A stretch of 64,000 nucleotides of DNA from Polyangiaceae bacterium (GCA_046351395.1 JAXLYP010000017.1:1508-65507); one strand, 5' to 3'. Positions 1 through 41,275 are shown, counted from the stretch's first letter. A program made the numbers and translations. The notes: a model not told the origin generated them from the letters alone.

Positions 1-210
1 GATCAGGCACGCCGAGCGTGTAGACGTCGAGGAAGAGCCGAGCTGCCCCATACCCCGAGAGGAACGAGTGGTGGAACGCGTCACGCGCCGAGCCAGCCGG
101 CGCCACCAGGGTCGCCTCGTGCCAGGTGTGCCCGTCGTCCCGACCCTCCGGGTGACATCCCGCGCACCCCACGTCCGGGGCTCGACGGTAGAAGAGTCGC
201 CTGCCGCCGT

Positions 211-1593: not shown

Positions 1594-1957
1594 CGTGGTG
1601 GAGGATACGCTCGACGGCGGGCGCCTCTGCCTTTCTATGCGCTCGGTGACGGCGCGCGCGGCGCCGGGGCCGCGCTGCGGCCGGCCGCAGCAGCGTGACA
1701 GTGGCCTCTCGTCCTCCGCCGATCGAGCGACTTGTTTCGAATGCGGGATCCGTCGAATGCGGCGGGGAGCCTTAGAGCGGCGGCGCAACAGGAGCGGGGC
1801 GAAGAGCGTGCGGGCCGATCGCGGAAAGGCGTTCGTGGTCGTTCGACGGCGGAGGTCGATGTGGCCCACGTTCGGCGATTCTTGCGCGGCCCGTAGGGGT
1901 TTCGTGGGGCTTGGTCGTGTGCGACCCTACTCGTTCGTGTCGACGCTCGAAGTGGGG

Positions 1958-9234: not shown

Positions 9235-10218
9235 TCAGCGGGCGGCGAGCGAATAATAGTAGATGACCGCCGGATCCCGGTCGTCGCGGTACGCGCCATG
9301 GCCCTCGGGATCCATCAGCGCCGCGGCCGAGAGCGCGATTCGATGAGCGAGCGAGGCGCGGCAACCGACTGTCGGTCGCGCGAGCAGCATTGGGCGCGTG
9401 GCGCTCCAACCCTCGAGCGCGCGGAGCGCTGCGGGCGCGAGGCCCTCGATCACGTGGCCCCACACGAGCCTTCGGTTCGCGGCGTCGTACGCGCAGACAA
9501 TGTCGGCCGGCACGCGGCGACGCTCGGCCCCCGAGACATCGAAGAAGACCAATGACCGCTCCTCGGGGTCGTAGTTGAAGCCGCCTCCGTCCTCGTAGCC
9601 GACGTACGCGTCGACCTCCCGCTGTCGGCGCTCGACCTCGGGCTCCGCGTCGCGCAGCATCGCGATGAACGGCTCGGTGAGCAAGCAGTGACGCGCGACG
9701 TCGGGGGCGACCCGTTCGACGTGGAGGGGCGAGGCACTCGGGGCTGCACCGTGCACCTCCAGGACCAGCCCGTCGCCGTCTCGGCGGAGAGTGAGCGCGC
9801 GGCTCGTCCACGGCGTGCCGGCGGCGCTGGTCAACGCCGCGATCTCGTCCGCGATCTCGGCGGCGTCGACCGCGGCGCCCGTTGGGTCGCCGAGGTTGGG
9901 CTTCGGCAGCGCTGGGCGGTGCGCGACGGCGCCGACGCGTTGGAGCGCGTGGTGACCGTCGGCGGCGCGATCGAAGACGACGTCGAGCATGTCCCAAGGG
10001 TGTGGCGCGAGGACCGCCAGAGCGTCGTGGAGCGCGAGCGCGAGCGCCGAGAATCCCATGTCGACGCCGAGCGTACGCGGGCGTCGTCGGCGTGTCGCGG
10101 CCGAGCTCGGTTCGTCGGCGACGAGCCCGGTCGATACGCTACCTTCCGCGACGATCGCGCGCTTTGCCCCGTGCTCTTCGGGGGTCGGACGATCGGTCAA
10201 AGGCGGAGGAACGAACAC
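9235..10218 (-). CDS. Hypothetical protein
   Basis: 327-aa ORF with balanced, non-Arg-biased composition (e.g. YVGYEDGGGFNYDPEERSLVFFDV, IYYYSLAAR). No recognisable motif. It lies in the right position between neighbouring genes. Confidence 0.45.
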   Translation of the reverse strand: MFVPPPLTDRPTPEEHGAKRAIVAEGSVSTGLVADEPSSAATRRRRPRTLGVDMGFSALALALHDALAVLAPHPWDMLDVVFDRAADGHHALQRVGAVAHRPALPKPNLGDPTGAAVDAAEIADEIAALTSAAGTPWTSRALTLRRDGDGLVLEVHGAAPSASPLHVERVAPDVARHCLLTEPFIAMLRDAEPEVERRQREVDAYVGYEDGGGFNYDPEERSLVFFDVSGAERRRVPADIVCAYDAANRRLVWGHVIEGLAPAALRALEGWSATRPMLLARPTVGCRASLAHRIALSAAALMDPEGHGAYRDDRDPAVIYYYSLAAR

Positions 10219-10244
10219 CGTATCCTTCGCGAACCATCGAATTC

Positions 10245-12605
10245 ATGGCCCACCCGCCCGACGCTCCGACCCCGCCCGAGCCACCTCATCCGTGGATCGG
10301 TCGAACCCTCCGCGACAAGTGGCGGATCGATGGCTTGCTCGGCAAAGGTGGAATGGCGACCGTCTTCTCCGCCACCCATCGGAACGGGATGCGCGGCGCC
10401 ATCAAGGTGCTCAACGCTTCGACCGGCGAGTCCGCGGACGCGCGCGCGCGCTTCATCCGCGAGGGGCGCGCGGCGAATCGGATCGATCACCCGGGTGTGG
10501 TGAAGATCCTCGACGACGACGTGACGGAGGACGGGCTCACCTTCCTCGTGCTCGAGATGCTCGAGGGCGAGACCTGGAAGGATCGCTGGCGCGCCCATGA
10601 TAGGCGCCTGCCCGTGCGCGAGACGATCGAGATCGCGACCGAGGTGCTCGACGTCCTCGCGGCGGCGCACCGCGCGGGGGTCATCCATCGCGACGTGAAG
10701 CCGGACAACGTGTTCCTGTGCAAGGGGACCGGCGACCTCCGCGGACCGGTGAAGCTCCTCGACTTCGGGATCGCGCGCCTGCGCGAGGTCGCGGGGGAGG
10801 CGACGGCGGACGGCGCGACGCTCGGCACGCCCGCGTTCATGTCGCCGGAGCAGGCGCTCGCGCACACGGAGCAGATCGATCACCGCAGCGACCTCTACGC
10901 CGTCGGCGCGACGCTCTGGACGCTCCTCAGCGGGCGTCTGGTGCACCCCGCGGCGACGGCGCCCGCGCTGCTCATCGCAGCAGCGACGACGCCCGCGGCA
11001 CCGTTCTCGAGCGTGATGCCGGACGCCCCAGCCGACCTCGCGGGCGTGATCGACCGCGCGCTCGCGTTCGACAAGGAGGCGCGGTGGGCGGACGCGGACG
11101 CGATGCGGGAGGCGCTGCGGCGCACGCTCGACGCGCCGGCGGTCGCGACCCTCCGCGCGGGCGTCGCGAGGTTCGAGGATCTGTCCGCGCCGACGGAGCG
11201 GTCGGGGGCCGCCGTCGCGAAGACGATCAAGCTCGACGCCTCACCCCTTCAGGCGACCGACTTCGGCGCCCAAAAGACGCTCGCGCAAGCGACGGCCGCT
11301 GCGCCCACGCCGAGGCGGTCGTCGGCGCGCGCCCTGATCGGCGCTGGCGCGGTGATCGCGGTCGGCGCGGGGGTCGCGGTGCTCGTCTCGACGATCGGGG
11401 GCGCCTCGACGTCGACCGCGCGGCCGAGCGCCTCGAGCGCGCCCACCCCGTCGAGCGCCCCTCCTCCTTCCACGCCCGAGCCGGTCGCCTCTGCGGCGCC
11501 GCCGGGCGCACACCAGGCGAAGAACCTCTTCGCGGGGCTCTACAGCACGTGCGCGGTTCGCAAGGACGGGCGTGTCGTCTGTTGGGGCAACGATCCCAAG
11601 GTCGGTGTGACCAAGTCCGCGCCGGGGCCCGCGCTCGTGAAGCGCCTCGAGGATCCGCGCTCCCTCGCGATCGGGGAGGCGGTGGACCTCGCGATCGTGC
11701 CCGCGGGCGCCGCCGGCCCGCGGCTGATCGGTTGGGGAAAGAACGTGAGCGAACTGCTCGGGACCAGCGTCCCGGACGGCGCCGTCGTCGACGTCGAGCA
11801 CGCGGTCGACCTCGAGATCCCGGGGGCGACGGACGTCGCCGTCGGCATGGTCTACGACGAGACGAGCGCGTGCGCCGTCGTCGACGGCAAGATCGAGTGT
11901 TGGGGGCGCGCCGGGCTCGCCCGGAAGGGGGCGATGAGCGAAGATCGAGCACCCCTCGCGATCCGCCTCGTCGCGGGCCCGTTCGAGCTGCCTGCGCGCC
12001 ACGTCGGCCTCGGCGCGAGCGACTTCGCGTGCGCGCTCGGCCAGAACGACGACTTCGTGTCCTTCGGGTGTTGGGGGACGGACCACCCGGAGCTCACACG
12101 TCAACGGGATCCGAAGTCGCGCTCCACCGATCAGTTCTGGGGCGCGTCGCCCTTGGACGCCTGGGCGGTGGGGCCGAGCGGCGCGTGCTTCACGAGCGGG
12201 CGATCCGTGACCTGTTGGGGAGGTGTCGCGCGGTGCGACGAGTCCGCCGAAGCGCCGCCCATGTTCGTCGAGGAACCGTCGAGTTCCATCGCCGTCGCGG
12301 GAGACCACCAATGCCTCGTCAGCGCGTCCGGGAAGCTCGCGTGCTGGGGGCGGGCGAGCTCCGCGACCGGCGATCCCAAGGAGAAGCGAGGGACCCTCGA
12401 GTGCAGCCCCGTCCCCGTGCCGCTCCCGGACAAGGCCACGAAGGTCGTCGTTGGAGGGGCCCACACCTGCGCGCTCACCGCCTCCGGAGACGTTTATTGT
12501 TTCGGTCGCAACGACGCAGGACAGCGCGGCTGCGGCGACGAGATCGAGACCCCCGTGCCGTGCCGTGTATCCCTGGACGTCCACTCGAGCGCATCGAGGC
12601 CCTGA
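10245..12605 (+). CDS. Ser/Thr protein kinase with TM segment and C-terminal RCC1-like repeat domain
   Basis: ORF 9882..12605 trimmed to ATG 10245 (MAHPPDAPT...). Kinase motifs GKGGMATVF, AIKVL, HRDVKPDNV, DFG and SPEQ. TM helix ALIGAGAVIAVGAGVAVLV. C-terminal repeats of the form xCAVxxDGxVxCWG (CAVRKDGRVVCWG, ACAVVDGKIECWG, ACFTSGRSVTCWG, CLVSASGKLACWG, TCALTASGDVYCFGRNDAGQRG), typical of RCC1/beta-propeller repeats. Confidence 0.85.
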   Translation: MAHPPDAPTPPEPPHPWIGRTLRDKWRIDGLLGKGGMATVFSATHRNGMRGAIKVLNASTGESADARARFIREGRAANRIDHPGVVKILDDDVTEDGLTFLVLEMLEGETWKDRWRAHDRRLPVRETIEIATEVLDVLAAAHRAGVIHRDVKPDNVFLCKGTGDLRGPVKLLDFGIARLREVAGEATADGATLGTPAFMSPEQALAHTEQIDHRSDLYAVGATLWTLLSGRLVHPAATAPALLIAAATTPAAPFSSVMPDAPADLAGVIDRALAFDKEARWADADAMREALRRTLDAPAVATLRAGVARFEDLSAPTERSGAAVAKTIKLDASPLQATDFGAQKTLAQATAAAPTPRRSSARALIGAGAVIAVGAGVAVLVSTIGGASTSTARPSASSAPTPSSAPPPSTPEPVASAAPPGAHQAKNLFAGLYSTCAVRKDGRVVCWGNDPKVGVTKSAPGPALVKRLEDPRSLAIGEAVDLAIVPAGAAGPRLIGWGKNVSELLGTSVPDGAVVDVEHAVDLEIPGATDVAVGMVYDETSACAVVDGKIECWGRAGLARKGAMSEDRAPLAIRLVAGPFELPARHVGLGASDFACALGQNDDFVSFGCWGTDHPELTRQRDPKSRSTDQFWGASPLDAWAVGPSGACFTSGRSVTCWGGVARCDESAEAPPMFVEEPSSSIAVAGDHQCLVSASGKLACWGRASSATGDPKEKRGTLECSPVPVPLPDKATKVVVGGAHTCALTASGDVYCFGRNDAGQRGCGDEIETPVPCRVSLDVHSSASRP

Positions 12606-18397: not shown

Positions 18398-19131
18398 ATG
18401 GTCTCCCGAGGCGCCGTCATCCTGGTCTTCGTCGCGATCCTCGCGGGCTGTGGCGCGTCGGCCCGGAGCCCGTTCGATCCGCGCGTCATGGAGCGGCGGC
18501 TCGCGTGCACGTCGTACGAGACGGCGACCGACGCGACGCTTCCGGGCCCGCCCCCGCTCTCTCGCGACGGCCGGGCCCGGTCGGACTTCGACCTCGAGCG
18601 GCGAGGGGAGACCCCCGAGCCCGGGCGGCCGAGCGATCTGATGGCGGAGGCGACCGAGCTCTTCGACGCGCGGCCGTGCCGCTGCTCCAGCGCGTCATCC
18701 GCCGCGAGGGGCAGGACGACGCGGGCAACGTGGAGCTCGCCACCTATCAGCTCGGCGTCGCCTACTACCACTCCGGGCTCTTCACGGCGTCCCTCGACGC
18801 GTTCGCGCCCATCGCGTCGGACCCCGCGCACCTGATGCACCACGAGACCCTCTATTGGCTCGTCGATCTGGCGCTCGAGGAGGAGACGAACCTGAAGGCG
18901 ATCGACCTCAGTTATCAGTACCTCGGGGAGAACTACTACGAGCTCGACTCGACGAACCGCGAGCTCGAATACCTCATCCAATACATTTGGGGCCGCGCCT
19001 ATTACCGCGTGGGCCTCTGGGACCAGGCGATCCGCAAGATGGAAGCGGTCGCGCGCGATCCTCGCTTCGCCCGCATCGCGACCGATTGCGCGAGCCTCGC
19101 GAAGCAGTTCGTGCACCCGCCCGGCGAGTGA
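18398..19131 (+). pseudogene. TPR-repeat lipoprotein (BamD/YbgF-like) interrupted by an apparent frameshift near 18690
   Basis: ATG 18398 preceded by GGAG gives MVSRGAVILVFVAILAGCGAS (lipobox). That frame reads ...DLMAEATELFDARP and then low complexity. A second frame from about 18685 reads ...LLQRVIRREGQDDAGNVELATYQLGVAYYHSGLFTASLDAFAPIASDP...YYRVGLWDQAIRKMEAVARDPRF (TPR-like) and runs to the stop at 19131. The two halves join into one plausible TPR lipoprotein only across a 1-nt frame change. Confidence 0.5.
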
Positions 19132-19222: not shown

Positions 19223-20332
19223 TCACTCGCTCCCAACGTCTTTCGGGAGCAGCTCGCGCGCGACCTGGATGCGGAGAATCCCGTCCTTCACGCGCTGGTC
19301 GTCGCCCGTCTTCTCTCCTTCCATCACGAGCCGGAAGCCGAACTCACAGCCATTCAAGTAGCGGATCCACGCGGCGAAGACCTGGCGGAAAGGCTCCTCG
19401 GGCGAGAAGCGCTCGGCGCGCTTCACCTCGGCGGCCCACGCGGGGACGACGCGCTCCTCGAGGATCGAGGCGAACCGAGCGCGGTCGATCTCCTTCGCGC
19501 GGAGGGACGCGCTCGCCGCCTCATAGTCCTCCAGGATGGCCGCGATCGCCGCGCGGCTGCGCTCGATCTCCGCGCTCGTGCGCGACTCCGGGCTCGGCCC
19601 GGCGGTCACCGCGAGGACCCACACCACCGCGCTCAGGGCGAACACGCCCGCTCGTCTCAGGCGCGCGTCCCACGGGGGCGCGCGTCTCCGGGCGTCGAGC
19701 ACGAGCGCGGCCGCGTACCCCACGACGAACCCTCCGAAGTGCGCCGCGAACCCGAGCTCGCGCATCGCGAGGCCGGGCACGAGCGTGAGCACCGTCATCG
19801 TGAGCACCTTGATGACGAGCCACCTCCGCGCCGCCTCCGGGATCCGCTCCCTCTGCAGCCGGACCTCCGCGAGGAGGGCGCCGTACATCCCCATGATCGC
19901 GCCCGACGCGCCGATGTAGACCACGTCCGGCTGCCACCACGCGCTCGCGAGCGCGCCCGCGAGGCCCGACAGCAGGTACACGCCGACGAACGCGACGTTG
20001 CCGAGGATGGCCTCCGCGGCTCGGCCGATGAGCCACATGCCGAACAGGTTCGCCGCGAGGTGGAGCACCCCGTAGTGCAAGAACATCGACGTGAGCATGC
20101 GCCACGACTCCGCGCGGAGGGCGCGGCCGTGGAGCCCTCCCCATGCGCGGAGCGACGCCGTCGTCGGCGCGAGGACGGACACGCCCTGCGTCGCGAGCGC
20201 CGCGAGCACGGCGACGTTCGCGACCATCAGCACGTAGACGACGTAGACGCGCGCTCCGAGCGACGCGACGAACGCCCGCTCCGCAGCGCGGCCGCTCGTG
20301 CGTGGGGGTGGGGTCTCGTCTCGCCCCTCCAT
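19223..20332 (-). CDS. Rhomboid family intramembrane serine protease with C-terminal soluble extension
   Basis: ATG 20332 (MEGRDETPPP...). Six TM helices. Catalytic GASGAIMG (GxSG) and the His in AHFGGFVVG. The ATG overlaps the TGA stop of the upstream kinase (cgcTGATGgag). Confidence 0.8.
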   Translation of the reverse strand: MEGRDETPPPRTSGRAAERAFVASLGARVYVVYVLMVANVAVLAALATQGVSVLAPTTASLRAWGGLHGRALRAESWRMLTSMFLHYGVLHLAANLFGMWLIGRAAEAILGNVAFVGVYLLSGLAGALASAWWQPDVVYIGASGAIMGMYGALLAEVRLQRERIPEAARRWLVIKVLTMTVLTLVPGLAMRELGFAAHFGGFVVGYAAALVLDARRRAPPWDARLRRAGVFALSAVVWVLAVTAGPSPESRTSAEIERSRAAIAAILEDYEAASASLRAKEIDRARFASILEERVVPAWAAEVKRAERFSPEEPFRQVFAAWIRYLNGCEFGFRLVMEGEKTGDDQRVKDGILRIQVARELLPKDVGSE

Positions 20333-22338
20333 CAGCGCGCGAGCTGTGCGCGCAGCGCTCCGCAGCGCTCGCCGAGCCAGAACTGAAGGAGAGTCTGTCG
20401 ACGACCCCGTCGACGGTGAGCACCCCCGCGGCTGGCGGAGTGCGCGTGGATACCGCGGAGCGCGCTGCCGAGGTCGCCCGTGACGACGAGCGCGGCGCGC
20501 GCGGCGGTCGCGTGTGCTCCCCGGATCGTGCGCCCCAGATCCGCGACGGAGGCCGACTGCAACAGGCGATCGACCTTCTCGCCGAGCGCGTCGCGCTCCG
20601 CGGGCCGCAAGTTCTGTCGGAGCATCGCGGTGATCGGCGCCGTCTCCGCGTGCATCGCCGCGGACCGCCCCGTCGCTTCGGCGAGGCTCGTCACGAGGTT
20701 CCGGAGGTTCTCGGTCGTCCCGAAGAAGTGCGCCGCGTAGAGCTCGGGCCGGAGGCGCGCGAGGGATCGCGCGGCCACGAAGAGCGCGCGCGGTGGTGAG
20801 AGGATCGCGAAGAACGACGCGCTCGCAACGCACGTCGGCGGCGCGCCGTGGTGGACCGCGACGGGGACGGCGCTCTCCGCTCGCACGAGGACGCGGGGCG
20901 TGTGGATGGCGAGGAGCGCCGCCGCGCGGAGCACCGCCGCGAGCGGCTCGGATGGCGGCGTGTGAGGGTCGAGGGGCCACGTGCGTTCGCCGGCGGGCGC
21001 GCTTCGCGCGCCGCTCGCGCGCGCGCGCGGCGCGGCCGCGCCGCCAAGTACGTCCACGAGGGGCAGCGCGAGATCCTCGTGCAAGAGCGCGCGCCACGCG
21101 GCATCGTCGAGCGGGACCGTCAGCGTCGCGGGGCGAGGGGGAGCGCCCGCGAGCGCCGCCTCGCTCGGCGACGCGTCCTTGAATGCGGAGAGGAGGGTCG
21201 CCGCTCTCCACGAAAGATCGCCGTCCCCCGTGCTTGCAGCGAACGAGAGGAGCTCGCGGACGAGCCGCGGCTGGCGCGGCGTGCGCTCGAACTCCGCGCG
21301 CACGTGCGCGATCGGCCGGCGACCGCCCGTGACTTTCGCCGGCTCGTCCGGCTCGACGAGATCGGGGTCGATCTCGTCGATCTCGTCGATCTCGTCGATC
21401 TCGCCGATCTCGTCGATCTCCTCGAAGTCCGCGGGATCCAGGAACTCCTCCTGGGCGCCGCCCCCCAGGAGGACCGGTCGGAGCGCCTCGAACGCCTCGC
21501 GGGCGCTCGGAAAGCGGCGCGCCGGATCGCGCGCCACCGCGACGAGGAACCACGCGTCGAAGCCTGGCGGGAGCGCGCCGCGCACGCCGCGCCGCGCCGC
21601 GCGCACACTCGGCGCCTCGATGGGATCCATGATCACCTCGCGCAGAAGGGCGTGCACGCTCGAGTCGGAGTCCGTCGCCGCGTTCCAATAGTACGCGCCC
21701 GTGAGGACCCGAAACGCGATGAGACCGAGCGCCCACACGTCCGTCGCCGGGGTGATGCGGCCCTTCGAGTCGGACTGCTCGGGCGCCATCCAGAGCGGCG
21801 TGCCCATCGATTGCGTCGCCTGGCTCACCGCGCTCGCGACGACCTTCGCGATCCCGAAGTCGAGGATCTTCACGTGGAGGTCGGCGCCGATCCTCCGCGA
21901 TCGGGCGAGGAACACGTTCTCCGGCTTGAGGTCGCGGTGCACCACGCCGCGCGCGTGCGCCGCGGCGAGCCCGTGGCAGAGCTGCGCGAGGATCACCGCG
22001 GCGTCCGCGGCGCTCTTCGCGCCCGCGCGCGTGAGGTGCGCGGCGAGATCTTCCCCGGAGAGCAGCTCCATCGCGAGGAACGGCGTCCCCGTCGGAGCGT
22101 CGACGCCGGCCGCGACCACCTCGACGACGTGGTCGCTCTCGATCGACGCCGAGATCCGCGCTTCCTGCACGAAGCGCTCGCGGAGGCGCGCGTCGCTCAC
22201 CAGGTTCGGGTGCATGAGCTTCAGGGCGCGCTGGCGGCCCGTGGAGAGCTGCTCGGCGACGAACACCGAGCCCATCCCGCCCGCGGACAACGGCCGAAGG
22301 ACGCGGAAATCGCCGCCTACGATCGCGCCCGCCTTCAT
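20332..22338 (-). CDS. Ser/Thr protein kinase with acidic (EID)n repeat linker and long C-terminal domain
   Basis: MKAGAIVGGDFRVLRPLSAGGMGSVF, ALKLMH, HRDLKPENV, DFG and APEQ. Linker FEEIDEIGEIDEIDEIDEIDPDL is encoded by a 9-nt tandem repeat. The stop overlaps the rhomboid start. An RBS (GAGGAG) lies 5 nt upstream of ATG 22338. Confidence 0.8.
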   Translation of the reverse strand: MKAGAIVGGDFRVLRPLSAGGMGSVFVAEQLSTGRQRALKLMHPNLVSDARLRERFVQEARISASIESDHVVEVVAAGVDAPTGTPFLAMELLSGEDLAAHLTRAGAKSAADAAVILAQLCHGLAAAHARGVVHRDLKPENVFLARSRRIGADLHVKILDFGIAKVVASAVSQATQSMGTPLWMAPEQSDSKGRITPATDVWALGLIAFRVLTGAYYWNAATDSDSSVHALLREVIMDPIEAPSVRAARRGVRGALPPGFDAWFLVAVARDPARRFPSAREAFEALRPVLLGGGAQEEFLDPADFEEIDEIGEIDEIDEIDEIDPDLVEPDEPAKVTGGRRPIAHVRAEFERTPRQPRLVRELLSFAASTGDGDLSWRAATLLSAFKDASPSEAALAGAPPRPATLTVPLDDAAWRALLHEDLALPLVDVLGGAAAPRARASGARSAPAGERTWPLDPHTPPSEPLAAVLRAAALLAIHTPRVLVRAESAVPVAVHHGAPPTCVASASFFAILSPPRALFVAARSLARLRPELYAAHFFGTTENLRNLVTSLAEATGRSAAMHAETAPITAMLRQNLRPAERDALGEKVDRLLQSASVADLGRTIRGAHATAARAALVVTGDLGSALRGIHAHSASRGGAHRRRGRRQTLLQFWLGERCGALRAQLAR
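21368..21425. repeat. 9-nt tandem repeat (gatctcgtc) x~6.5 encoding (EID)n in the kinase linker
   Basis: Direct reading: gatctcgtcgatctcgtcgatctcgtcgatctcgccgatctcgtcgatctcctc. Confidence 0.8.
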
Positions 22339-22348
22339 CCGCTCCTCG

Positions 22349-22529
22349 CTAGAGCACCGGACACGTCGAGACCCGAACGAATGCGCTCGAGTTCGAGGGA
22401 GAGGCGCACGCCCGAGGAGCGAGCGCCCGAAGCCGACTCCGCATCATGCCCGGAGCAGCGCGACGAGGCCGTTTGGATCTCTCCGAAATCGGCTGCATAC
22501 CTCGGCGTTTCATGATGGTCGGTGTCTAC
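22349..22529. repeat. TIR-bounded ~181-bp intergenic element, copy A (MITE-like)
   Basis: Starts ctagagcaccgg and ends cggtgtctac. About 85% identical to the reverse complement of 28085-28266 over the full length. Its left end lies 10 nt upstream of the kinase ATG (22338). Its right-end cta doubles as the TAG stop of the cyclophilin gene. Confidence 0.7.
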
Positions 22530-26154: not shown

Positions 26155-26412
26155 ATGTCCATCGTTCTCTTCCTCGTTTTCGGCTGGATCGTCGGCCTCC
26201 TGGCCCGCGCCATCATGCCGGGGAAGCAGCCGATGTCCCTGATCATGACGTCCCTCCTCGGCGTCGCCGGCTCGTTCGTGGGCGGAGCGCTCTCGGCCGC
26301 GGTGTTTCACCACGACTTCCTGTCGTTCCGGACGACGGGCCTCATCGGAAGCGTCGTCGGGGCGCTCATCGTCCTCGCGATCGCCGGGCTCGTGAAGAAG
26401 GACAAGAAGTAG
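26155..26412 (+). CDS. GlsB/YeaQ/YmgE family membrane protein (transglycosylase-associated type)
   Basis: ATG 26155 preceded by AAAGGA. 85 aa with two or three TM helices (MSIVLFLVFGWIVGLLARAIMPG...GVAGSFVGGALS...GSVVGALIVLAIAGLV). Confidence 0.7.
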   Translation: MSIVLFLVFGWIVGLLARAIMPGKQPMSLIMTSLLGVAGSFVGGALSAAVFHHDFLSFRTTGLIGSVVGALIVLAIAGLVKKDKK

Positions 26413-26509
26413 CCCACCGCATCGGCGCTTTCGCGCGCGGCTCGCCTCGCCGGCCTCCCGAGTTGACGCACCTCCGAGCCAGGTGCGAGCCTTTGTCCAC
26501 GCAGCGCGC

Positions 26510-28084
26510 ATGGAGAGCCCGGCCGAAATCGGTGATCTGATCGCCGGCAAATACCGCGTCGACAAGGTCCTCGGGACCGGCGGCATGGGCGTCGTCGTGG
26601 CGGCGACGCACGTGGGCTTGAACGAGGTCAGAGCGATCAAGATGCTCCGACCGAAACTCGCGACGAACCCGGCCTACACCGATCGGTTCCTCCAGGAGGC
26701 GCAGGCGATCGCGCGCCTCAAGAGCGAGCACATCGCCCGCGTGCACGACGTCGGCATCCACGTGCGCGCGGACGGCCAGAGCGTGCCGTACATGGTCATC
26801 GAGTACGTCGAGGGCGGCGATTTTGCGACCGTCCTTCGGCAGCGCGGTGCCCCTCCCGTCGAGCAGGCGGTGACGTACGTCCTCCAGATCACCGAGGCGC
26901 TCGCCGAGGCCCACAAACACAACATCGTCCACCGGGACATCAAGCCGGCGAACCTCTTCCTGTCGACGAGCAACGACGGATCCGCGTGCGTGAAGGTGAT
27001 CGACTTCGGCATCGCGAAGACGGCCGCGAACCTCACGCAGGTCGGCGTGGTGCTCGGCAGCCCGCGCTACATGTCGCCCGAGCAGATCCGGGAGTCGCGC
27101 GACGTCGACGTGCGCGCCGACATCTGGTCCCTGGGGATCGTGCTCTACGAGCTCCTCACGGGACAGACCCCGTTTCAAGGTGGCGGCATCCTCGAGGTGT
27201 GCGAGCGCATCTTCGAGGACGACCCGGCGCGCCCGTCGCGGCTCCGCGCCGACGTTCCGGCCGCGCTCGACGCGGTGGTGCTGCGCTGCCTCGAGAAGGA
27301 TCGCGAGCGCCGCTACCCCCACGTCGCCGCGCTCGCGGAGGCGCTCGCTCCGTTCGCGACGGAGGACGCGCGCACCGTCGCGCAGCGGGTCGCGCGCGTG
27401 CTCGGCGTCGCCTTGCCGGCGAGGGTGCCGCTGCCCGCGGCGCCCGCGGTCGATCCATCGCCCAGCCACACGGACGTCGATCCCCGCCCGGTCGTGGTGC
27501 TCTCCACCCCCGATCCGCGCCCGCTCGGGCAGGACACGTCGACCGATCTTGGCCCGCCGAACGGCGCCGCGGCGCCTCCCGCGCCGACGCTCGTCTACGC
27601 CCAGCCCGGTCACCCGCGTCCTCCGTCGGGGCCTCGCGTCGGATCGGTGACGGAGACGTCCCTCGGCGCGATCGGCGCGGCGTCGCCCATGCCCGTCGGG
27701 GCTGTGTCGACGCTCCCCGCTGGGCGCGGGCGCCTGATCGCGATCGCTGCCGTGACGGGCGTCGCGGTCGCGGCGGTCGCGACCGCGATCGCGTGGCCCG
27801 CCGACCGAACCGCTCCGCCGAGCGCGGCGAGCGCGGCGGCGCCGTCGGACACGAGCTCCGCGCCCGCGCCCGCGCTCGCGAGCTACTCGGCCCCCATCCA
27901 CGCGGCCTCCTCCGACGCGAGCTCGAGCGCGCCGCTCACGGCGAGCTCGAGCCCCAGCGCATCGGCGCAGCCGTCGAGCGCTCCGCCCCCGCGCGCGACC
28001 TCGGCCCCGCAGCGCCCCGTCGGTCCGACGACCGCGCCGCCGCGATCGCCGGGCGGGCTCACGTCGAGCCGAGGCAGGATTTAG
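26510..28084 (+). CDS. Ser/Thr protein kinase with TM segment and Ser/Ala/Pro-rich C-terminal tail
   Basis: MESPAEIGDLIAGKYRVDKVLGTGGMGVV, AIKML, HRDIKPANL, DFG and SPEQ. TM helix LIAIAAVTGVAVAAVATAIAW. An alternative GTG start lies at 26483. The TAG stop at 28082-28084 is followed directly by the TIR element. Confidence 0.85.
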   Translation: MESPAEIGDLIAGKYRVDKVLGTGGMGVVVAATHVGLNEVRAIKMLRPKLATNPAYTDRFLQEAQAIARLKSEHIARVHDVGIHVRADGQSVPYMVIEYVEGGDFATVLRQRGAPPVEQAVTYVLQITEALAEAHKHNIVHRDIKPANLFLSTSNDGSACVKVIDFGIAKTAANLTQVGVVLGSPRYMSPEQIRESRDVDVRADIWSLGIVLYELLTGQTPFQGGGILEVCERIFEDDPARPSRLRADVPAALDAVVLRCLEKDRERRYPHVAALAEALAPFATEDARTVAQRVARVLGVALPARVPLPAAPAVDPSPSHTDVDPRPVVVLSTPDPRPLGQDTSTDLGPPNGAAAPPAPTLVYAQPGHPRPPSGPRVGSVTETSLGAIGAASPMPVGAVSTLPAGRGRLIAIAAVTGVAVAAVATAIAWPADRTAPPSAASAAAPSDTSSAPAPALASYSAPIHAASSDASSSAPLTASSSPSASAQPSSAPPPRATSAPQRPVGPTTAPPRSPGGLTSSRGRI

Positions 28085-30690: not shown

Positions 30691-31176
30691 TTACTCGGCG
30701 ATCTTCGCGAACACGTCGTCGCGGAGGCGCTTTGCGTCCGCCACGTCGATGCCGAACGCATCGCGGATGTCGCCCTCGAGCGCGATCTCCTCGTCCGTCG
30801 TCGCGAAGTCGACGAGCGTCATCGCGAACGCGAGTTGAAAGGCGAGGCGCCGCGTCGAGTCGCTCGTGAGGCTCGCGCCGATCTCCTTCAGCCGAACGAG
30901 CTCCCGGCCCGTGGGCACGCGCCGGGCGAATGTACCGAGCAACGTCTCGATATCGAGCTCCGAGAGCGGCGGCGCCTCCGGGTCGACGAGCCCACGGAGG
31001 CGCAGCGCGAGGTTCCGAAACGCGTCGAGCTCCTCCTCCGGGACCTCGCGATCGATCGCCATCGCGACGTACGCGACCTCGAGCAGCGCGTTCGCTTCGA
31101 TCGGCTGAAGCACCACCTTGCCCACCGGGGGAAGAACGAGCACGACACGCGCGCTCCAGGAGTTCGGTCCGCTCAT
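30691..31176 (-). CDS. TerB-like (tellurite-resistance TerB family) protein
   Basis: ATG 31176 (MSGPNSWSARVV...). Two helical halves with the TerB-like pattern (EANALLEVAYVAMAIDREVPEEELDAFRNLALRLRGL; RRLAFQLAFAMTLVDFATTDEEIALEGDIRDAFGI). The upstream part of ORF 30691..31707 is Ser/Arg junk. Confidence 0.5.
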   Translation of the reverse strand: MSGPNSWSARVVLVLPPVGKVVLQPIEANALLEVAYVAMAIDREVPEEELDAFRNLALRLRGLVDPEAPPLSELDIETLLGTFARRVPTGRELVRLKEIGASLTSDSTRRLAFQLAFAMTLVDFATTDEEIALEGDIRDAFGIDVADAKRLRDDVFAKIAE

Positions 31177-34600: not shown

Positions 34601-35141
34601 CGCCGACGAGCGTACCCATCGGACGCGCCGTCTCGAACCCCGAATCGTCCACCGCTGTGCCGGCGTACGTCGCGCCGACGATCCCGTCGGCGCCGACGAG
34701 GAGCACGCCCCCCCGATCGTGGTCGAAGCGGAGCGCCGCGCGGGCGACGCCAAAGCCGTAGCTCGCGGTGTTCGGGCCATAGCCGAACCGGAGAAAATAC
34801 AGGCCGCCCACGCCGCCGCCCAACCCGAGCAGGAGCACGCGCCCGGGCTCGAACGACGCGATCGCGCCCACGTTCGATCGGCCGCAGAACAGGCAGTTCT
34901 CGAGCATCAGCGTGGCGTCGATGGTGAACCCCTCGGCGAACCTCGCGCCGAGCGCGCCCTCCATCGCGACGCCGCCGACCCACGTCGAGCCCGCGTTCGC
35001 GAAGCCCCCGCCCACCAGCGCGCCCCCGTGAAGGCGGGGGAAGCTCCCCTCCTCGGCCTGCGCCATCGGCGCGCCGATGGCGGCGGTCGCAGCAGCGGTG
35101 ACAGACAAAAGAGCACCATAGAACGCAGCCCGTCGTTGCAT
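34566..35141 (-). CDS. Secreted Gly-rich protein (hypothetical, possibly small beta-barrel)
   Basis: ATG 35141 gives MQRRAAFYGALLSVTAAATAAIGAPMAQAEE (signal peptide). Alternating Gly/hydrophobic strands (GGALVGGGFANAGSTWVGGVAMEG..., GVLLVGADGIVGATYAG...). Confidence 0.45.
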   Translation of the reverse strand: MQRRAAFYGALLSVTAAATAAIGAPMAQAEEGSFPRLHGGALVGGGFANAGSTWVGGVAMEGALGARFAEGFTIDATLMLENCLFCGRSNVGAIASFEPGRVLLLGLGGGVGGLYFLRFGYGPNTASYGFGVARAALRFDHDRGGVLLVGADGIVGATYAGTAVDDSGFETARPMGTLVGGGRLFFGFETE

Positions 35142-35314
35142 CCGCGAGACCCCGGCGATGTTCGAAGGAAGAGCGCGACCCAAATGTCATGCGGTCGCGC
35201 GAAGCGAGCTCGAAAAGCCGCGCTTCCGCGCGCGGCGACGCCCGCGTCGCAAGCGTCGCGCCAAAGGGTGAGCTCGCTCGCGCCGGCGCCGGCGCGCGAG
35301 CGCCGCAACGCGGG

Positions 35315-36769
35315 TCAGGCCACGCGCTTGACGGAGCGTGGAGCCTTCGCGCGCGGCCGGAGATCCTTCGAACGGTCGTGACGCACGTTGAAGCGCTCGA
35401 GGATCTCGTCGCGCCGCTCGATGGCCTTCTTTCGGTCGAGCACGATCTTTTGACCGTCCGCGAGCTCCACCGTCACGTAGGGCCCGGCGCCCTCCTCGAC
35501 GATCTGCACGAGCTGGCGCAAGGTCGCGATCGTCTGCCCGTCGACCTTCGTGACGATGTGGTTCTCGTACTCGTGGTACCCCTGGTTCATCTCGTCCGCG
35601 AGGACCTTCTGGAGGATCACGACCTCCTGCCGGACGGCGGTGCGGATCGACGTCTCGTATGTCGTCATGAGCTCGTTGGGAGCGGCCTTCCACCACTCGT
35701 GACCCCAGCTCTTCAGGTAGTCGCGCGTGAGGGGCGCGAAGAGCACGCCCCCGAAGATGAAATACGTCGGCATCACGTCGTAGCGATCCTCGGGGACGAG
35801 GAGGCTCGGGCCAGCGAGCGTGACCTCGAGCTCGAGGCGCTTGCGCTCGCGCAAGATCGACAGCTTGAGGCGCTCTCCAACGTGGCGGAGCGCGACGCGG
35901 AAGCTGTGATCCACGAGCTCGCCGCGCCGGAGCGTGAGCGTCCCGTCCGGGCCGACCTCTTCGCCGTCGATCGCGAGCAGCACGTCCCCCTCCTTGAGGA
36001 TGCCCCACGCGCTCGACTGGTACGCGACGCGAACGACGAACACGCCCCCGCCGCCCGGGCTGAGGCCGAGCGACTTGCGGTGCGTCGCGGACTCGAGGCG
36101 CTGCCAGATCACGCCGAGGCTGGGGAACACGAGGGGGCGCTTCGCCGCGAGATCCGCGAGGAAGTGCTGCACGACGGGCAGGGAGATCGCGTACGCGATG
36201 TTCTGCGTCTCGTCGAGCGATTGGAAGGCGACGCCGATGAGCTTGTCGCCCTTGAACACGGGGCCCCCGCTGTTGCCGGAGTTGACGGCCGCGTCGATCT
36301 GGATGGCGAGGAGCGGGCGCTGGCTGTGCGCGTACGGCGAGACCTCGATGCGCGAGACCACGCCCTGCGTGAGGGACAGGCGATCGCCGCCGATCGGGTA
36401 TCCGCACACGGTCACGTGATCGCCGAGCTCCGGGAGCTCCCCGAACTGGATGGGCGTCGCGCCCTCCCAAAACTCCTCCTTCTTGACGCGCAGCAGCGCG
36501 AGGTCGCACTCGTGGCAGACGCCCTCGACCTCGGCCGCGAACTTGTGCGATTGACCGAACCGACGGAGCTCGACGAACACCTGGTTCTGGACGACGTGCG
36601 CGTTCGTGAGGACGCGCAGGCCCCGCGCCGTCTCGATGATCGCGCCGGACCCGGAGCTCGAGGTCGGGCCGTGCATCTGCCAGGGTTGCTCGTAGTCGGG
36701 AGCGTCCGACACGGTCAGGACCTTGACGACCGAGTGCAGGACGGGCTTCTGGGAGGCGCGTTTGGTCAA
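35315..36769 (-). CDS. Trypsin-like serine protease, HtrA/Deg family, with C-terminal PDZ-like region; no signal peptide
   Basis: Catalytic triad context: TNAHVV (His), DLALL (Asp) and GNSGGP (Ser). 484 aa. Resembles cytoplasmic Deg-type proteases. Confidence 0.8.
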   Translation of the reverse strand: MTKRASQKPVLHSVVKVLTVSDAPDYEQPWQMHGPTSSSGSGAIIETARGLRVLTNAHVVQNQVFVELRRFGQSHKFAAEVEGVCHECDLALLRVKKEEFWEGATPIQFGELPELGDHVTVCGYPIGGDRLSLTQGVVSRIEVSPYAHSQRPLLAIQIDAAVNSGNSGGPVFKGDKLIGVAFQSLDETQNIAYAISLPVVQHFLADLAAKRPLVFPSLGVIWQRLESATHRKSLGLSPGGGGVFVVRVAYQSSAWGILKEGDVLLAIDGEEVGPDGTLTLRRGELVDHSFRVALRHVGERLKLSILRERKRLELEVTLAGPSLLVPEDRYDVMPTYFIFGGVLFAPLTRDYLKSWGHEWWKAAPNELMTTYETSIRTAVRQEVVILQKVLADEMNQGYHEYENHIVTKVDGQTIATLRQLVQIVEEGAGPYVTVELADGQKIVLDRKKAIERRDEILERFNVRHDRSKDLRPRAKAPRSVKRVA

Positions 36770-36899
36770 AGGATGGGTGGCCTACCGAACCCCTCGTCGC
36801 GCCACAAGCCATCGCGAGAACACCTGTGTTTCACCGGCTCCCCGCGACGACAGGAATCGGACGGCCCGGTCGGCGCGGACGTTGCGAGCTCCGCCCCCC

Positions 36900-37733
36900 A
36901 TGAGCCGGACCGTCCGAACATCGACGCTCGCCGCTTGCGCCGTCGCGCTCTCCTGCGCCCTGGGGATCGCCCCCGCCGCGCGCGCGGAGCCCCCGGCGGA
37001 CACGCCGAACCACGGTGCGCACCCCGCGCTGGTCGTGGGCGCCGCCGATCTCGCGGTGACGGGCGTGCTCGTCCCGATCGGCATCGGCATGGGCGCGGGC
37101 GTCCGAGACAACGGGTGGGAGAAGGCGTCCGCCGTGATCGGGGCGGGGTTGGGGCTCGGCGCGATCGGCGCGGCCGCCGCGATCCATGGCGAAGGAGAGG
37201 GGGCGCGAACGTTGAAAGACCCCGTGGCCGCGGGCTTCGGCTGGATGTTCACGTCGCTCGCGGCGAGCGGCGTGGGCGCGGGGCTCGGGCTCGTGATCGG
37301 CGGCGACGAGGCCGCGAAGCCCGTCGGGGGGATCCTCGCCGCGTCCTCGCTCGCGTTCCTCGCGCCCGGGATCCCGCTGATCGCGGATGGAGAGCGCACG
37401 GCCGTCGAGCCTCCGCGTTGGGGGCCGCCCGCCGAGGCCGACCGCGCGCGGACCGAGATGAACAGCCCGGCGATGGTGGGGATCGGATCGACCTGCATCG
37501 TGCTCGGCGGCCTCGGCTCCTTCATCGGGCTCGCGGGGGTCGTCGCGGGCAGTGGCATCTCGGGCAGCGGGGGGGAGCAGCTCAGCGGGATCGGCGGAGG
37601 ACTCCTGGGCGGCGGGCTCGCGCTCGCGCTCGCGGTCGGCACGCCGCTCGTGGTGGTCGGCGCAAAGCGGGTCCCTGCGGCGCCGTCCGTGGGCGTCGGT
37701 CCGAGCAGGATCACGATGCGCGGCGAGTTCTGA
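36900..37733 (+). CDS. Gly-rich integral membrane/secreted protein (hypothetical)
   Basis: ATG 36900 gives MSRTVRTSTLAACAVALSCALGIAPAARAEP (signal peptide). Multiple Gly/Ala-rich hydrophobic segments (GAGLGLGAIGAAAAI, GVGAGLGLVIGG, GIGSTCIVLGGLGSFIGLAGVVAGSGISGSGG). Confidence 0.45.
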   Translation: MSRTVRTSTLAACAVALSCALGIAPAARAEPPADTPNHGAHPALVVGAADLAVTGVLVPIGIGMGAGVRDNGWEKASAVIGAGLGLGAIGAAAAIHGEGEGARTLKDPVAAGFGWMFTSLAASGVGAGLGLVIGGDEAAKPVGGILAASSLAFLAPGIPLIADGERTAVEPPRWGPPAEADRARTEMNSPAMVGIGSTCIVLGGLGSFIGLAGVVAGSGISGSGGEQLSGIGGGLLGGGLALALAVGTPLVVVGAKRVPAAPSVGVGPSRITMRGEF

Positions 37734-37779
37734 GGGCGCGGTCCTTGCGACTGCCTCGCGTCTACGCGATCGTTCACCG

Positions 37780-39974
37780 ATGGTGCGGACGCGCGCGATC
37801 TCCGCTTCGCTCGCCGCTTGTACGCTCGCGTCTCTGCTCGCGTCTCTGCTCGCGTCTCTGCTCGCGGGTTGTGGCGGGGGCATCGATCGTGGTGCGGCGC
37901 CGAGGGTGTCGACGAGCGCGAGCGCTTCTCCGGCGATCGCGTTGCCCGATCAGGATCCACCGAAGGGCACGCAGCGCGATGTCGTCGCGGTCGCCGTGGA
38001 TCATGGCGCCTGGTGCGCCGCGCTCTCGGACGGCCGCGTCGCCTGCTGGGGCGTGGGCCCGCTCGGACTCGCGACGCGCCCGACGATCGTCCCCGGAGTG
38101 AAGGAAGCCCGATCGATCATCCTGGTCGACGATCAGCTCTACGTGACGCACGCGAACGGCGACGTGACCTCTCACGGTCCGCCGCTGCGGGCGAGCGCGC
38201 CGCCCCTCGTCACGGGCTCCGCGACGTTCGTCGCAGGTGAAGACGTCGCGTGTTGGATCCTGGGGAACACGAACTTCAAGTGCACGAGGCGCGCGGATCG
38301 GCGCGCCATGATCACCGGCAACGGCGCCATCGCGATCGCCGCGGGCGCGCGGCACGCGTGCTTCATCCAGAGCGACGGGAGGGAGTCCGCTGCGTGGGCG
38401 CGAACGACGCTGGGCAGCTCGGCGCTGCCGCGGCGGAGGTCGCAGCAGCCGGGCACTGCGCATCCCGTCCGCACGCCGGCGCGGGCGGTCTCGGCCGAGA
38501 GGCGCACGGCTGCGCGCTCCTCGAGGACGGCTCCGTCTCGTGCTGGGGCTCCCCCGAGGCGGCGCTCGGCGCCACCCCGGGCGCCAAGGTCGCGGGCGTG
38601 TCGGGCGCGGTCGCGATCGCGAGCGGCGATTCGAACACGTGCGCGCTCGACGCCGAGGGCGCGCCCACGTGCTGGGGCTCGAACGGCCGCGGCCAGCGAG
38701 GCGCAGGAGACGTCGGCGGGATCGACCGTCCTCCGACGCAGGTCGGTCTGGACCGCGTGACTCGGATCGCCGTCGGCGAACGCACGTGCGCGGTGACGGC
38801 CGGCATGCATCTCTTCTGTTGGGGCGAGACGGTCGCGTACGCGCCCGTGCGGGCCGACCTCACCGAGCGCGCCACCTCGCTCGCGCTCGGGGCGGGGCGC
38901 TCGTGCGCGGAGACCGAACGCGGGTCGTTCTGCTGGGGAGATCTCGACGCGCGGTTCGACCTCACGAAGCCTCGCCCAGTCCGCCGCATCCCGGAGCTCG
39001 TCGATCCCCATCGGACGGTCGAGGCGCGCCGTGCCTGGCGAGCGCCGCTATGCGATCTGCACGATCGACGGCGCGGGCCGCGTCGCGTGCACGCGCTCCG
39101 AGGACACGTTCACCGAGACGCCCGCGTCGAACGATCCCCGCGTCGTGACCCCCGGGGTCGACGACGCCGTCGACCTGGCGGTCGGGGCGTCCCACGCGTG
39201 CGCGCTCCGCAGGAGCGGCGCCGTGGCGTGCTGGGGTGACAACTTCTACGGCGAGCTCGGCCGCGCGCCTTGCGGCGCGTTCGCGAGCGAGCGGGACCAA
39301 GTCATGGGGGACGAGCTGCCGAAGTGCAGCGCCCCCGAGGACAGTGCCCGGGACGTCCCGGGTGTCGCGGGCGCGACGGCGATCGCCGCGCGTGGGAACG
39401 TGAGCTGCGCGCTCCTCGCGCCCGGGACCGTCCAGTGTTGGGGTTCGGGGCCCGCGCGCGGCGCCATGTCAGGGCGATGGCAGCCCGGAGTGGGCCGCCT
39501 CCGCGATCGCCGGCGTCAGCGACGCCGTGCAGATCTCCGTCGGGAAGCTCCACGCGCGCGCGCGCGCACGGGCGGCGTGACGTGCTGGGGGACCGGGGAC
39601 ACAAACCCTACAATCCTCGGACGGGCGCGGTCGACGCGTCGCCGCTCGGAGCGATCTCGGTCCCGTTGCACGACGTGGTGGACATCGCGTCCGGCGATCG
39701 GATCACGTGCGCGGTGAAGAAGAGCGGCGCGGTCGCGTGCTTCGGCGTGTTCGACGACGCGACTCGTGGCGGCCTCCCGGAGGACGCGATGGGGACGTGG
39801 ATCTTCAGTGCAGAACCTCCCGCAACGCCTCGCGCGTCGCCGGTCGGGGGCGATCCGCGATGCGCGATCACCCGCGCCGGCACCGTCTATTGCTGGGGTC
39901 ATGGGAAGGTCGGGCAGCTCGGCGACGGCAGCGGTGGGGCACGCCGATCGGGCGCGGCCATCGTCCTCGAGTAG
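37780..39974 (+). pseudogene. RCC1-repeat lipoprotein broken by at least three or four frameshifts
   Basis: ATG 37780 gives MVRTRAISASLAACTLASLLASLLASLLAGCGGG (lipobox). RCC1-type repeats (HGAWCAALSDGRVACWG; ARHACFIQSDGRE|; |GVRCVGANDAGQLG; GCALLEDGSVSCWG; TCALDAEGAPTCWGSNGRGQRG; HLFCWG; SFCWG; AICTIDGAGRVACT; ASHACALRRSGAVACWGDNFYGELG; NVSCALLAPGTVQCWG; GVTCWGTGDTN; RITCAVKKSGAVACFG; RCAITRAGTVYCWGHGKVGQLGDG). These continue across four different reading frames (tracks 37552, 38250, 39031, 39270/39707). Frame switches occur mid-repeat, e.g. at about 38390 (gacgggagggagtcc). Confidence 0.6.
37825..37867. repeat. 12-nt tandem repeat (ctcgcgtctctg) x3.5 encoding (ASLL)3 in the signal peptide
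   Basis: Direct reading: ctcgcgtctctgctcgcgtctctgctcgcgtctctgctcgcgg. Confidence 0.8.
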
Positions 39975-40093
39975 AGCGCGCGAGACTCGCGGCGCGCCTC
40001 ACCAGCGACGCGGCCGACGGCGCAGAAGGGGCGCGCGCGGAGCCGCACGAGGAGGCAGGCCGAGGGTCAGGCCGAACGAGATCCCGCTCCCGC

Positions 40094-41275
40094 TCAGCGT
40101 GATCTGAAACCCGCTCGCCGGTGGGGACGGCGTCGACGGCGCGTCGAGGAGGGCGCGCCGCGCAGACTCCGCGGACACCGCGAGCGCCTTCGGCTTGGTC
40201 GACGCGCTCGGCGACGAACTCGCGCGTCTCGCGCTCGCTGAAAACGAGCACCGCGACGACGCCGCGAGCGCGATCCGCCGAGCGCGAGGCCGAGGGTGAG
40301 CGCGGTCCGGCGCGGTCGCCGCGCGCCCACGGCGGGCGGAGGGAGCGCGAACGCGGGCGCGTGCACCATCGTGTGCTGCGCGGCGACCGCGGCGAGGTGA
40401 GGCGTGGGTGCGTCCGGGGCGACGCGCTGGCGCGCTTCGGTGAGCCGCGCGAACACCTCCGCCATCGTCGGCCTCGAGGCCGGTGTCTTCGCGAGCATCC
40501 CGTCGACGAGCGCAGCGAGCTCGATCGGCGCGGACGGCGCGCGCGAAGCGAGCGGCGGCGCGGGCTCGATCGTGAGCTTCATGAGCATGTCGAGCAGCTC
40601 CTCCGCGTCGAACGGACGCGCCCCCGAGACGAGCTCGAAGAGGAGCGTGCCGAGCGAGAAGACGTCGCTCGGCGCCGCCACGTCGCGCTCGCCGGTCGCC
40701 TGCTCGGGGGACATGTACGCTGGCGTCCCGATCGCGGTCCCGGCCTCCGTGAGGGCCCGGCCCGTCCGGGTTCGGGCCACGCCGAAGTCGAGGAGCTTCA
40801 CGAGCGACGTGGATCCGCGCACGAGGTAGACGTTCGCGGGCTTTACGTCGCGGTGGACGACGCCGCGCGCGTGCGCTCCCGAGAGCGCGCTCGCGAGCGC
40901 CAGGCCCACGTCGATCGTCTCGGGCAGCGTGAGGGGGGCGCGCTCCATCCGCGCCTTCAGCGTCTCGCCGACGAGCCACTCCATCACGAGGAACGGCTCC
41001 GCGGCAGACGTGCGCCCGTGCGCCACGTACCGGACGACGGAAGGGTGCTGGAGCGCGAGCAGGATCTCCGCCTCACGCTCGAACCGCGAAGCCTCCTCGG
41101 TGCCGCTCGCGGAGTCGGGGCGCTTCAGGACCTTCACCGCGACGTCCCCGCCGACCGCGAGATCTTTCGCGCGGAACACGAGCCCCATCGCCCCCGAGCC
41201 CACGAGGTGGTCGAGGCGGAAGCGCCGTTCGAGGAGGTCTCCGACACGCATGGACGGTTCGGCCACGCTCAGCAA
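40094..41275 (-). CDS. Ser/Thr protein kinase with basic C-terminal tail
   Basis: LVGSGAMGLVFRA, AVKVLK, HRDVKPANV, DFG and SPEQ. C-terminus ...TALTLGLALGGSRSRRRRG is a hydrophobic stretch plus an Arg-rich tail. An alternative start lies at M9. Confidence 0.8.
   Translation of the reverse strand: MLSVAEPSMRVGDLLERRFRLDHLVGSGAMGLVFRAKDLAVGGDVAVKVLKRPDSASGTEEASRFEREAEILLALQHPSVVRYVAHGRTSAAEPFLVMEWLVGETLKARMERAPLTLPETIDVGLALASALSGAHARGVVHRDVKPANVYLVRGSTSLVKLLDFGVARTRTGRALTEAGTAIGTPAYMSPEQATGERDVAAPSDVFSLGTLLFELVSGARPFDAEELLDMLMKLTIEPAPPLASRAPSAPIELAALVDGMLAKTPASRPTMAEVFARLTEARQRVAPDAPTPHLAAVAAQHTMVHAPAFALPPPAVGARRPRRTALTLGLALGGSRSRRRRGARFQRARDARVRRRARRPSRRRSRCPRSLRGAPSSTRRRRRPHRRAGFRSR

Follow-up and report, generated by a model that had tools for sequence, protein, structure and literature searches.

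Where RCC1-type repeats are encoded in several reading frames within a short stretch of bacterial DNA, two questions arise: whether the pieces descend from a single gene and, if so, whether that gene is broken in the organism or in the assembled sequence. Such a locus lies at 37780-39974 on the plus strand of a window of 64,000 nucleotides (the whole stretch of DNA that was analyzed, ~71% GC), taken from a 246,456-nt contig of the NCBI MAG "Polyangiaceae bacterium" (locus tags U0414_266xx). A first-pass annotation had described it as one lipoprotein gene with at least 12 RCC1-type repeats, disrupted by several frameshifts, and had named a decaying pseudogene or assembly indels as possible causes.

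The single-gene reading is confirmed by four independent lines of evidence, namely the frame signal in GC3 and a frame HMM, the alignment to orthologues, the phases of the DNA repeats, and Pfam, which agree that 37780-39974 (+) descends from one ORF whose RCC1-type repeats are now spread over three reading frames. The GC3 frame plot and the frame HMM, both of which are homology-free, showed the coding frame passing from 1 to 0, 1, 2, and 0 (codon start modulo 3) inside 37962-39806, a density of switches seen at no other place in the 64-kb window. HMM frame switches elsewhere, for example at 50974 and 44944, and an in-frame stop at 41654 were rejected as ordinary gene boundaries or low-complexity N-termini. 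Frameshift-aware protein-to-DNA alignment gave identical net frame switches against three intact full-length homologues, P0001 (688 aa), P0002 (720 aa), and P0003 (690 aa), all of which contain RCC1/RLD Pfam domains. At the DNA level, the "...CAL..G.V.CWG" unit is represented by the repeat families D1 and D2, whose copies occur in register but in two codon phases over the length of the gene. The co-linear, full-length alignment to all three orthologues and the synteny of the locus with the P0002 contig (L005) show descent from a single functional ORF; the functional ancestor is certain, since intact orthologues exist, one of them at a syntenic locus.

At least five frame changes were located in the RCC1 gene, near 38378, 39005, 39465, 39562, and 39597 (Table 1). 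Two to four more are probable, which would bring the total to 7-9 within 38378-39843. One additional stretch in frame 1, at ~38425-38495, is probable from both GC3 (frame 1 over 38390-38500) and the P0003 alignment. As a control, the same alignment method was applied to three intact orthologous genes and returned a net frame change in 0 of 5 comparisons, but short compensated excursions in 2 of 5, and a 30-nt compensated excursion at 39812-39843 in the RCC1 gene is unproven for that reason. The co-linear alignment also bears out the earlier statement that the breaks fall in the middle of repeats, and the repeats number 14, above the minimum of 12 first given. The frame switching described in the first-pass annotation was real, although its count of four ORF-track frames becomes three frames over four to five ORFs. 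The positions of its two example junctions were likewise right, while the motif at the second reads GGVTCWG rather than AAVTCWG.

Table 1 Features of the RCC1 locus, their database records, and the other frame-broken genes of the window.
Feature	Position	Strand	Description	Evidence
Whole former ORF	37780-39974	+	~730 codons when repaired, 14 repeats	Full-length match to P0001-P0003, Pfam
Lipoprotein signal peptide	37780-37872	+	Lipobox LAGC, Cys31 (codon 37870-37872)	Direct reading
Tandem repeat	37824-37866	+	Perfect, 12 nt x 3.6 (GCTCGCGTCTCT)	Tandem Repeats Finder, 100% matches
Segment A, frame 1	37780-38376	+	Repeats 1-3, part of 4	GC3, alignments
Segment B, frame 0	38379-39005	+	Probable brief return to frame 1 at ~38425-38495	Alignments
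Segment C, frame 1	39006-39465	+	B/C break adjoins GATCCCCATC, CCCC run 39003-39006	Alignments
Segment D, frame 2	39470-39560	+	…PEWAASAIAGVSDAVQISVGKLHA; ends in (CG)7.5 tract 39553-39567	
Segment E, frame 1	39562-39597	+	GGVTCWG	Alignments
Segment F, frame 0	39597-39974	+	To TAG stop; possible compensated excursion 39812-39843	
Frame change 1	~38376-38382	+	Frame 1 to 0	Alignment to three orthologues
Frame change 2	38954-39037, refined ~39005	+	Frame 0 to 1; beside CCCC run	Alignment
Frame change 3	39462-39503	+	Frame 1 to 2	Alignment
Frame change 4	39553-39571	+	Frame 2 to 1; in (CG)7.5 tract	Alignment
Frame change 5	39594-39597	+	Frame 1 to 0	Alignment
MFO0616194.1 (P0481)	38394-39239	+	"RCC1 domain-containing protein"	NCBI CDS, exact look-up
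MFO0616195.1 (U0414_26615)	39582-39974	+	"hypothetical protein"	NCBI CDS
Convergent Ser/Thr kinase gene	40034-41275 (annotated 40094-41275)	-	Catalytic part intact down to ~40352	
TPR lipoprotein gene	18398-19131	+	Frame break ~18668	Orthologue P0245 (251 aa), 77% identity
MauG-like gene (MauG/cytochrome-c-peroxidase-like)	1-1926	-	Frame switch ~265-300	930-aa homologue

The ATG at 37780 opens MVRTRAISASLAACTLASLLASLLASLLAGC, and the TAG at 39972-39974 ends the last piece. The end of the signal peptide (…SLLAGC, Cys31) conforms to the lipobox pattern [LVI][ASTVI][GAS]C, identifying the product from its sequence as a putative bacterial lipoprotein with an N-terminal lipid anchor; the lipoboxes of P0001-P0003 are VGC or LGC. 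The perfect tandem repeat at 37824-37866 encodes (LASL)n within the hydrophobic core of the signal peptide and is not present in the orthologues; it looks like a recent in-frame expansion.

A repaired protein of 715 aa exceeded the curated Pfam cut-offs for PF25390 WD40_RLD (164.2 bits, cut-off 150), PF13540 RCC1_2 (137.7 bits, cut-off 22), and PF00415 RCC1 (33.6 bits, cut-off 21.7), which makes it a predicted member of the RCC1-like repeat (RLD) family. It shares the motif ..H.CA....G.V.CWG.N..GQLG.. with bacterial RLD proteins, named "alpha-tubulin suppressor-like RCC1 family protein" in the sources, and has 14 repeats, as do RLD homologues of 650-800 aa, which are common in Myxococcota. Compared with RLD proteins in general, the subgroup of P0001-P0003 adds a lipoprotein signal and evolves fast (~50% identity), and, unlike its intact RLD orthologues, the ORF in the window record is frame-broken. 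In the frameshift-aware alignment, identity to P0001 and P0002 was ~49-50% over ~700 residues, and the family consensus consists of 14 CWG units.

The AF2 model of P0002, the syntenic orthologue rather than the window protein, is all-beta with a mean pLDDT of 72, and its top Foldseek matches are UVR8, RCC1, and the HERC2 RLD (E ~1e-18 to 1e-15). Its TM-scores are ~0.45-0.55 when normalized to the target vs ~0.25-0.30 when normalized to the query, as expected if each propeller spans about half of the model. The 14 RCC1-type repeats would probably correspond to two seven-bladed propellers, and the CWG units and the model matches together suggest that the ancestral product would have been a lipid-anchored double propeller.

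The first-pass annotation had considered a disrupted gene notable in view of a kinase-fused RCC1 domain 25 kb away. That gene exists and is intact (9795-12605, plus strand, with Pkinase and WD40_RLD/RCC1_2 Pfam domains), but it is a distant paralogue, and RCC1-type repeats are very common in the phylum, so the fusion does not make the locus notable. A generic motif scan confirmed 471 RCC1-type loci in the phylum and recovered only paralogues of ~30% identity, and the degenerate pattern "HKPYNPRTGAV" searched against metagenome contigs was found in the P0001 organism only. In all three protein searches the matches had ~0.57-1.75 times the length of the query, a range that would explain why shorter RCC1 fragments were missed in the first homologue search. 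A literature search returned nothing relevant on RCC1 lipoproteins in Myxococcota.

The breaks are not confined to the RCC1 gene, as the first-pass annotation had taken them to be, and three further genes are affected: a convergent Ser/Thr kinase gene, a TPR lipoprotein gene (~18668), and a MauG-like gene (~295). The annotated kinase product (P0125, MFO0616196.1, 390 aa) ends in an Arg-rich out-of-frame tail, the GC3 phase of its gene switches at ~40275, and the true C-terminus ("ASGFQITLSGSGISFGLTLGLPP") lies in a different frame at ~40120-40040. The kinase orthologue P0126 is 62% identical overall and 73% identical over the kinase domain, and its own C-terminus ("...SSGLRLSLSQSGISFSLTFGPP") is matched by the window solely in that other frame; likewise, a transmembrane segment and "SGISFGLTLG", a conserved motif of the C-terminus, read on in other frames. 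At least one frameshift, and probably two or three, fall between ~40040 and ~40350. Taken with those of the RCC1 gene, they yield ~8-12 indels within an indel-dense patch of 1.9 kb (38376-40275) that spans the RCC1 gene and the kinase 3′ end, vs ~2 indels in the remaining 62 kb.

In the TPR lipoprotein gene, the N-terminal 90 aa and the C-terminal 150 aa are encoded in different frames, each part matches P0245, and the junction is 13 nt shorter than in P0245 and two further homologues. In the MauG-like gene, it is the second frame that contains the CxxCH haem motif GCAGCHPEGRDDGHTW. At least four of the ~45 genes in the window are thus frame-broken, and the remaining genes appear intact. The window also holds at least five Ser/Thr kinase genes (~1927-3499, 9795-12605, 20332-22443, 26396-28084, and 40094-41275).

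In the NCBI annotation, the RCC1 pieces were called as separate proteins (Table 1), and MFO0616193.1 should be a third RCC1 piece by accession order; judging from the accession and locus-tag numbering, no pseudogene is flagged at the locus. With the 3′-encoded third of the repaired protein as the query, the only short fragment found was the source's own 130-aa CDS. Four independent short-read Logan contigs (L087, L094, L095, and L096) from three SRA runs (SRR14234094, SRR14234089, and SRR12908308), in which the same population is present, matched the window at 100% identity over 6.4 kb with no indel, which shows the MAG contig to be accurate wherever it is checkable; these contigs cover none of the breaks. 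Exact Logan copies were found for five of eight complete short genes (≤282 aa) elsewhere in the window. No Logan product matched the 3′ part of the RCC1 gene (39304-39974), and exact look-up of the two NCBI RCC1 fragments and of the kinase returned NCBI copies and no Logan copy. A strain variant (L092, from DRR438477) was 98.7% identical, with 2 indels and 6 substitutions in 970 nt: a 1-nt change in a G-run upstream of a 154-aa lipoprotein gene (~45501) and a 6-nt in-frame change in an ACC repeat. Indels may therefore be naturally frequent in the lineage of the window.

Tests that bear on error or decay were applied to the RCC1 gene. Every disruption in it is an indel, and it contains zero nonsense codons; ~2.3-2.6% of random substitutions in the CDS would make a stop, and the probability of seeing no stop with 5-7 frameshifts is 0.02-0.23 for indel:substitution ratios between 0.05 and 0.1. 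Signs of relaxed selection in the gene, whether rate acceleration, stop codons, or loss of codon bias, were not found. A relative-rate test with P0003 as the outgroup counted 69 window-unique vs 56 orthologue-unique changes for P0001, and 63 vs 63 for P0002. In the window, 80% of the residues invariant across P0001-P0003 are kept, the loss being 20% after the first break vs 18% before it (p=0.72), and GC3 is 0.887 after the first break vs 0.853 before it (0.85-0.94 in the other genes).

Whether the breaks fall in homopolymers, a check that the first-pass annotation had proposed, was answered in the negative: runs of at least 4 nt occur in 4 of 13 break intervals, no more than by chance (null mean 2.7, p=0.28), and neither GATC nor CG repeats are enriched in these intervals. 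Without homopolymer enrichment, the classical homopolymer-miscall model does not fit. Measured against mutually agreeing orthologues, the RCC1 gene shows indels of +2, -2, -4, and -1 nt and the TPR gene one of -13 nt; for each of these to be a 1-nt error, most sites would also have to carry an in-frame indel by coincidence. In neither GC content nor homopolymer density does the patch stand out within the window, which suggests no compositional cause for a local failure, and the homopolymer-length spectrum was uninformative as a signature of the sequencing technology.

The first-pass annotation had itself named independently translated small genes as the reading that would overturn its own, and NCBI indeed lists 38394-39239 and 39582-39974 as separate CDSs. 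Both this reading and programmed frameshifting or transcriptional slippage are excluded in practice, because the breaks lie within repeat units, the pieces align one after another along single orthologues of 688-720 aa, and no slippery motif is shared by the 5-9 sites, whose contexts are unrelated. The annotated pieces moreover bear long Arg-rich out-of-frame tails or heads, and the frame-1 ORF that starts at the ATG, as annotated, continues out of frame beyond segment A to a stop at 38760. The clustering of indels in the patch would, taken alone, fit a real, localized indel hot spot where the 3′ ends of the lipoprotein and kinase genes converge, in a clonal environmental Polyangiaceae population; error-prone repair or a conflict between replication and transcription could, for instance, give rise to it, as opposed to neutral decay or assembly noise. 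We consider such a hot spot highly improbable, as no repeat, motif, or structural feature marking the patch was seen and as it requires all the assumptions of a pseudogene plus an unknown mechanism.

This leaves the two causes originally put forward. Over genuine decay we favor, with a rough probability of 0.55, an error in the consensus where the assembly has poor support. The locus would then encode, or very recently have encoded, one lipoprotein of ~730 aa with 14 RCC1-type blades, probably forming two seven-bladed beta-propellers tethered to the membrane through the N-terminal lipid anchor, and its ORF would have been chopped by dense small indels from a poorly supported patch of the MAG contig. 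Such a patch could stem from a long-read stretch, gap fill, or contig join without short-read polishing, or from a chimeric consensus; both the method of assembly and the absence of these indels from the organism itself are inferred. This reading is preferred because an otherwise pristine gene carries multiple hits beside a broken neighbor, with more broken genes on the same MAG contig. As an artefact would, the breaks affect unrelated genes (kinase, MauG-like, and TPR) and ignore a gene boundary; the split CDS calls, the junk tail of the kinase, the restriction of the damage to indels, the lack of relaxed selection, and the missing Logan copies also speak for it. Against it stand the 100% Logan agreement, the unremarkable composition, the non-1-nt sizes, the indels of L092, and the absence of a concentration in homopolymers, by which long-read or 454 errors are classically recognized.

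Long-read MAG consensus sequences are documented to carry frameshifts caused by indels and to yield fragmented gene calls (PMC9262707). The window resembles such long-read or hybrid metagenome assemblies in its indels without stops, its several broken genes on one MAG contig, its otherwise intact coding signal, and its separately annotated fragments (PMC9262707). It differs from them in that its breaks are not homopolymer-enriched and include sizes of 2, 4, and 13 nt, and in that the contig perfectly matches short-read contigs elsewhere.

Genuine decay is a serious possibility, though one to which we give less than even odds. The RCC1 gene would be a real, fairly young pseudogene with many indels of 1-13 nt, the kinase would truly lack its transmembrane and extracytoplasmic tail, and the two remaining broken genes would also be true pseudogenes, all in a clonal population under relaxed selection. 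The indel sizes, mostly other than ±1, and the lack of a preference for homopolymers agree with decay, as do the intact orthologues, one of them syntenic, and the 100% match to short-read contigs over 6.4 kb in three runs, which points to a population that is clonal and was assembled accurately; with the indel:substitution ratio of ~0.33 seen in L092, many indels would be compatible with few substitutions and no stop. However, at least seven frameshifts without nonsense codons, rate excess, or GC3 shift, and with 80% of the invariant residues kept, are unusual for a multi-hit pseudogene; the indel patch disregards the gene boundary and ends within the kinase, and the source is a MAG. At least four broken genes of ~45 would also be a high number for a free-living bacterium whose genome is large. 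With ordinary bacterial frameshift pseudogenes the RCC1 gene shares a single-ORF ancestor, intact orthologues, multiple breaks, and truncated products only, but it differs from them in having no nonsense codons or rate acceleration and a normal GC3, and in that its breaks extend into the neighboring gene.

Either the disruption is no real feature or the gene is an ordinary pseudogene; its family is very common in bacteria, and the locus is mainly a data-quality flag: MFO0616194.1, MFO0616195.1, MFO0616196.1, and, by numbering, MFO0616193.1 are fragment or frameshift products that stand in protein databases as real proteins. If the breaks are real, the gene is a young pseudogene of the ordinary kind, from a surface-protein family that evolves fast, and they would mean that the family is dispensable in that lineage, and little else. 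For putative double-propeller RCC1-like lipoproteins beside a conserved DegP-like protease, the intact orthologues are more informative than the window locus.

On the P0002 contig, the DegP-like protease is 95% identical in protein (83% in DNA) to the product of window gene 35318-36769 (-), and a membrane protein of 284 aa shares 53% identity with that of 36900-37730, with the RCC1 gene next to it. A steep conservation gradient thus runs across 34878-39974, from 95% for the protease to ~50-53% for the membrane protein and the RCC1 lipoprotein. On the P0003 contig (L006), the neighbor of the RCC1 lipoprotein is an orthologue (72%) of window gene 30697-31146 (-), which in the window sits 7 kb from the RCC1 locus, indicating local rearrangement between the lineages. 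The context of the kinase differs too in the P0001 organism (L088), and in relatives a gene for a MauG-like protein lies directly downstream of the orthologous kinase (L088).
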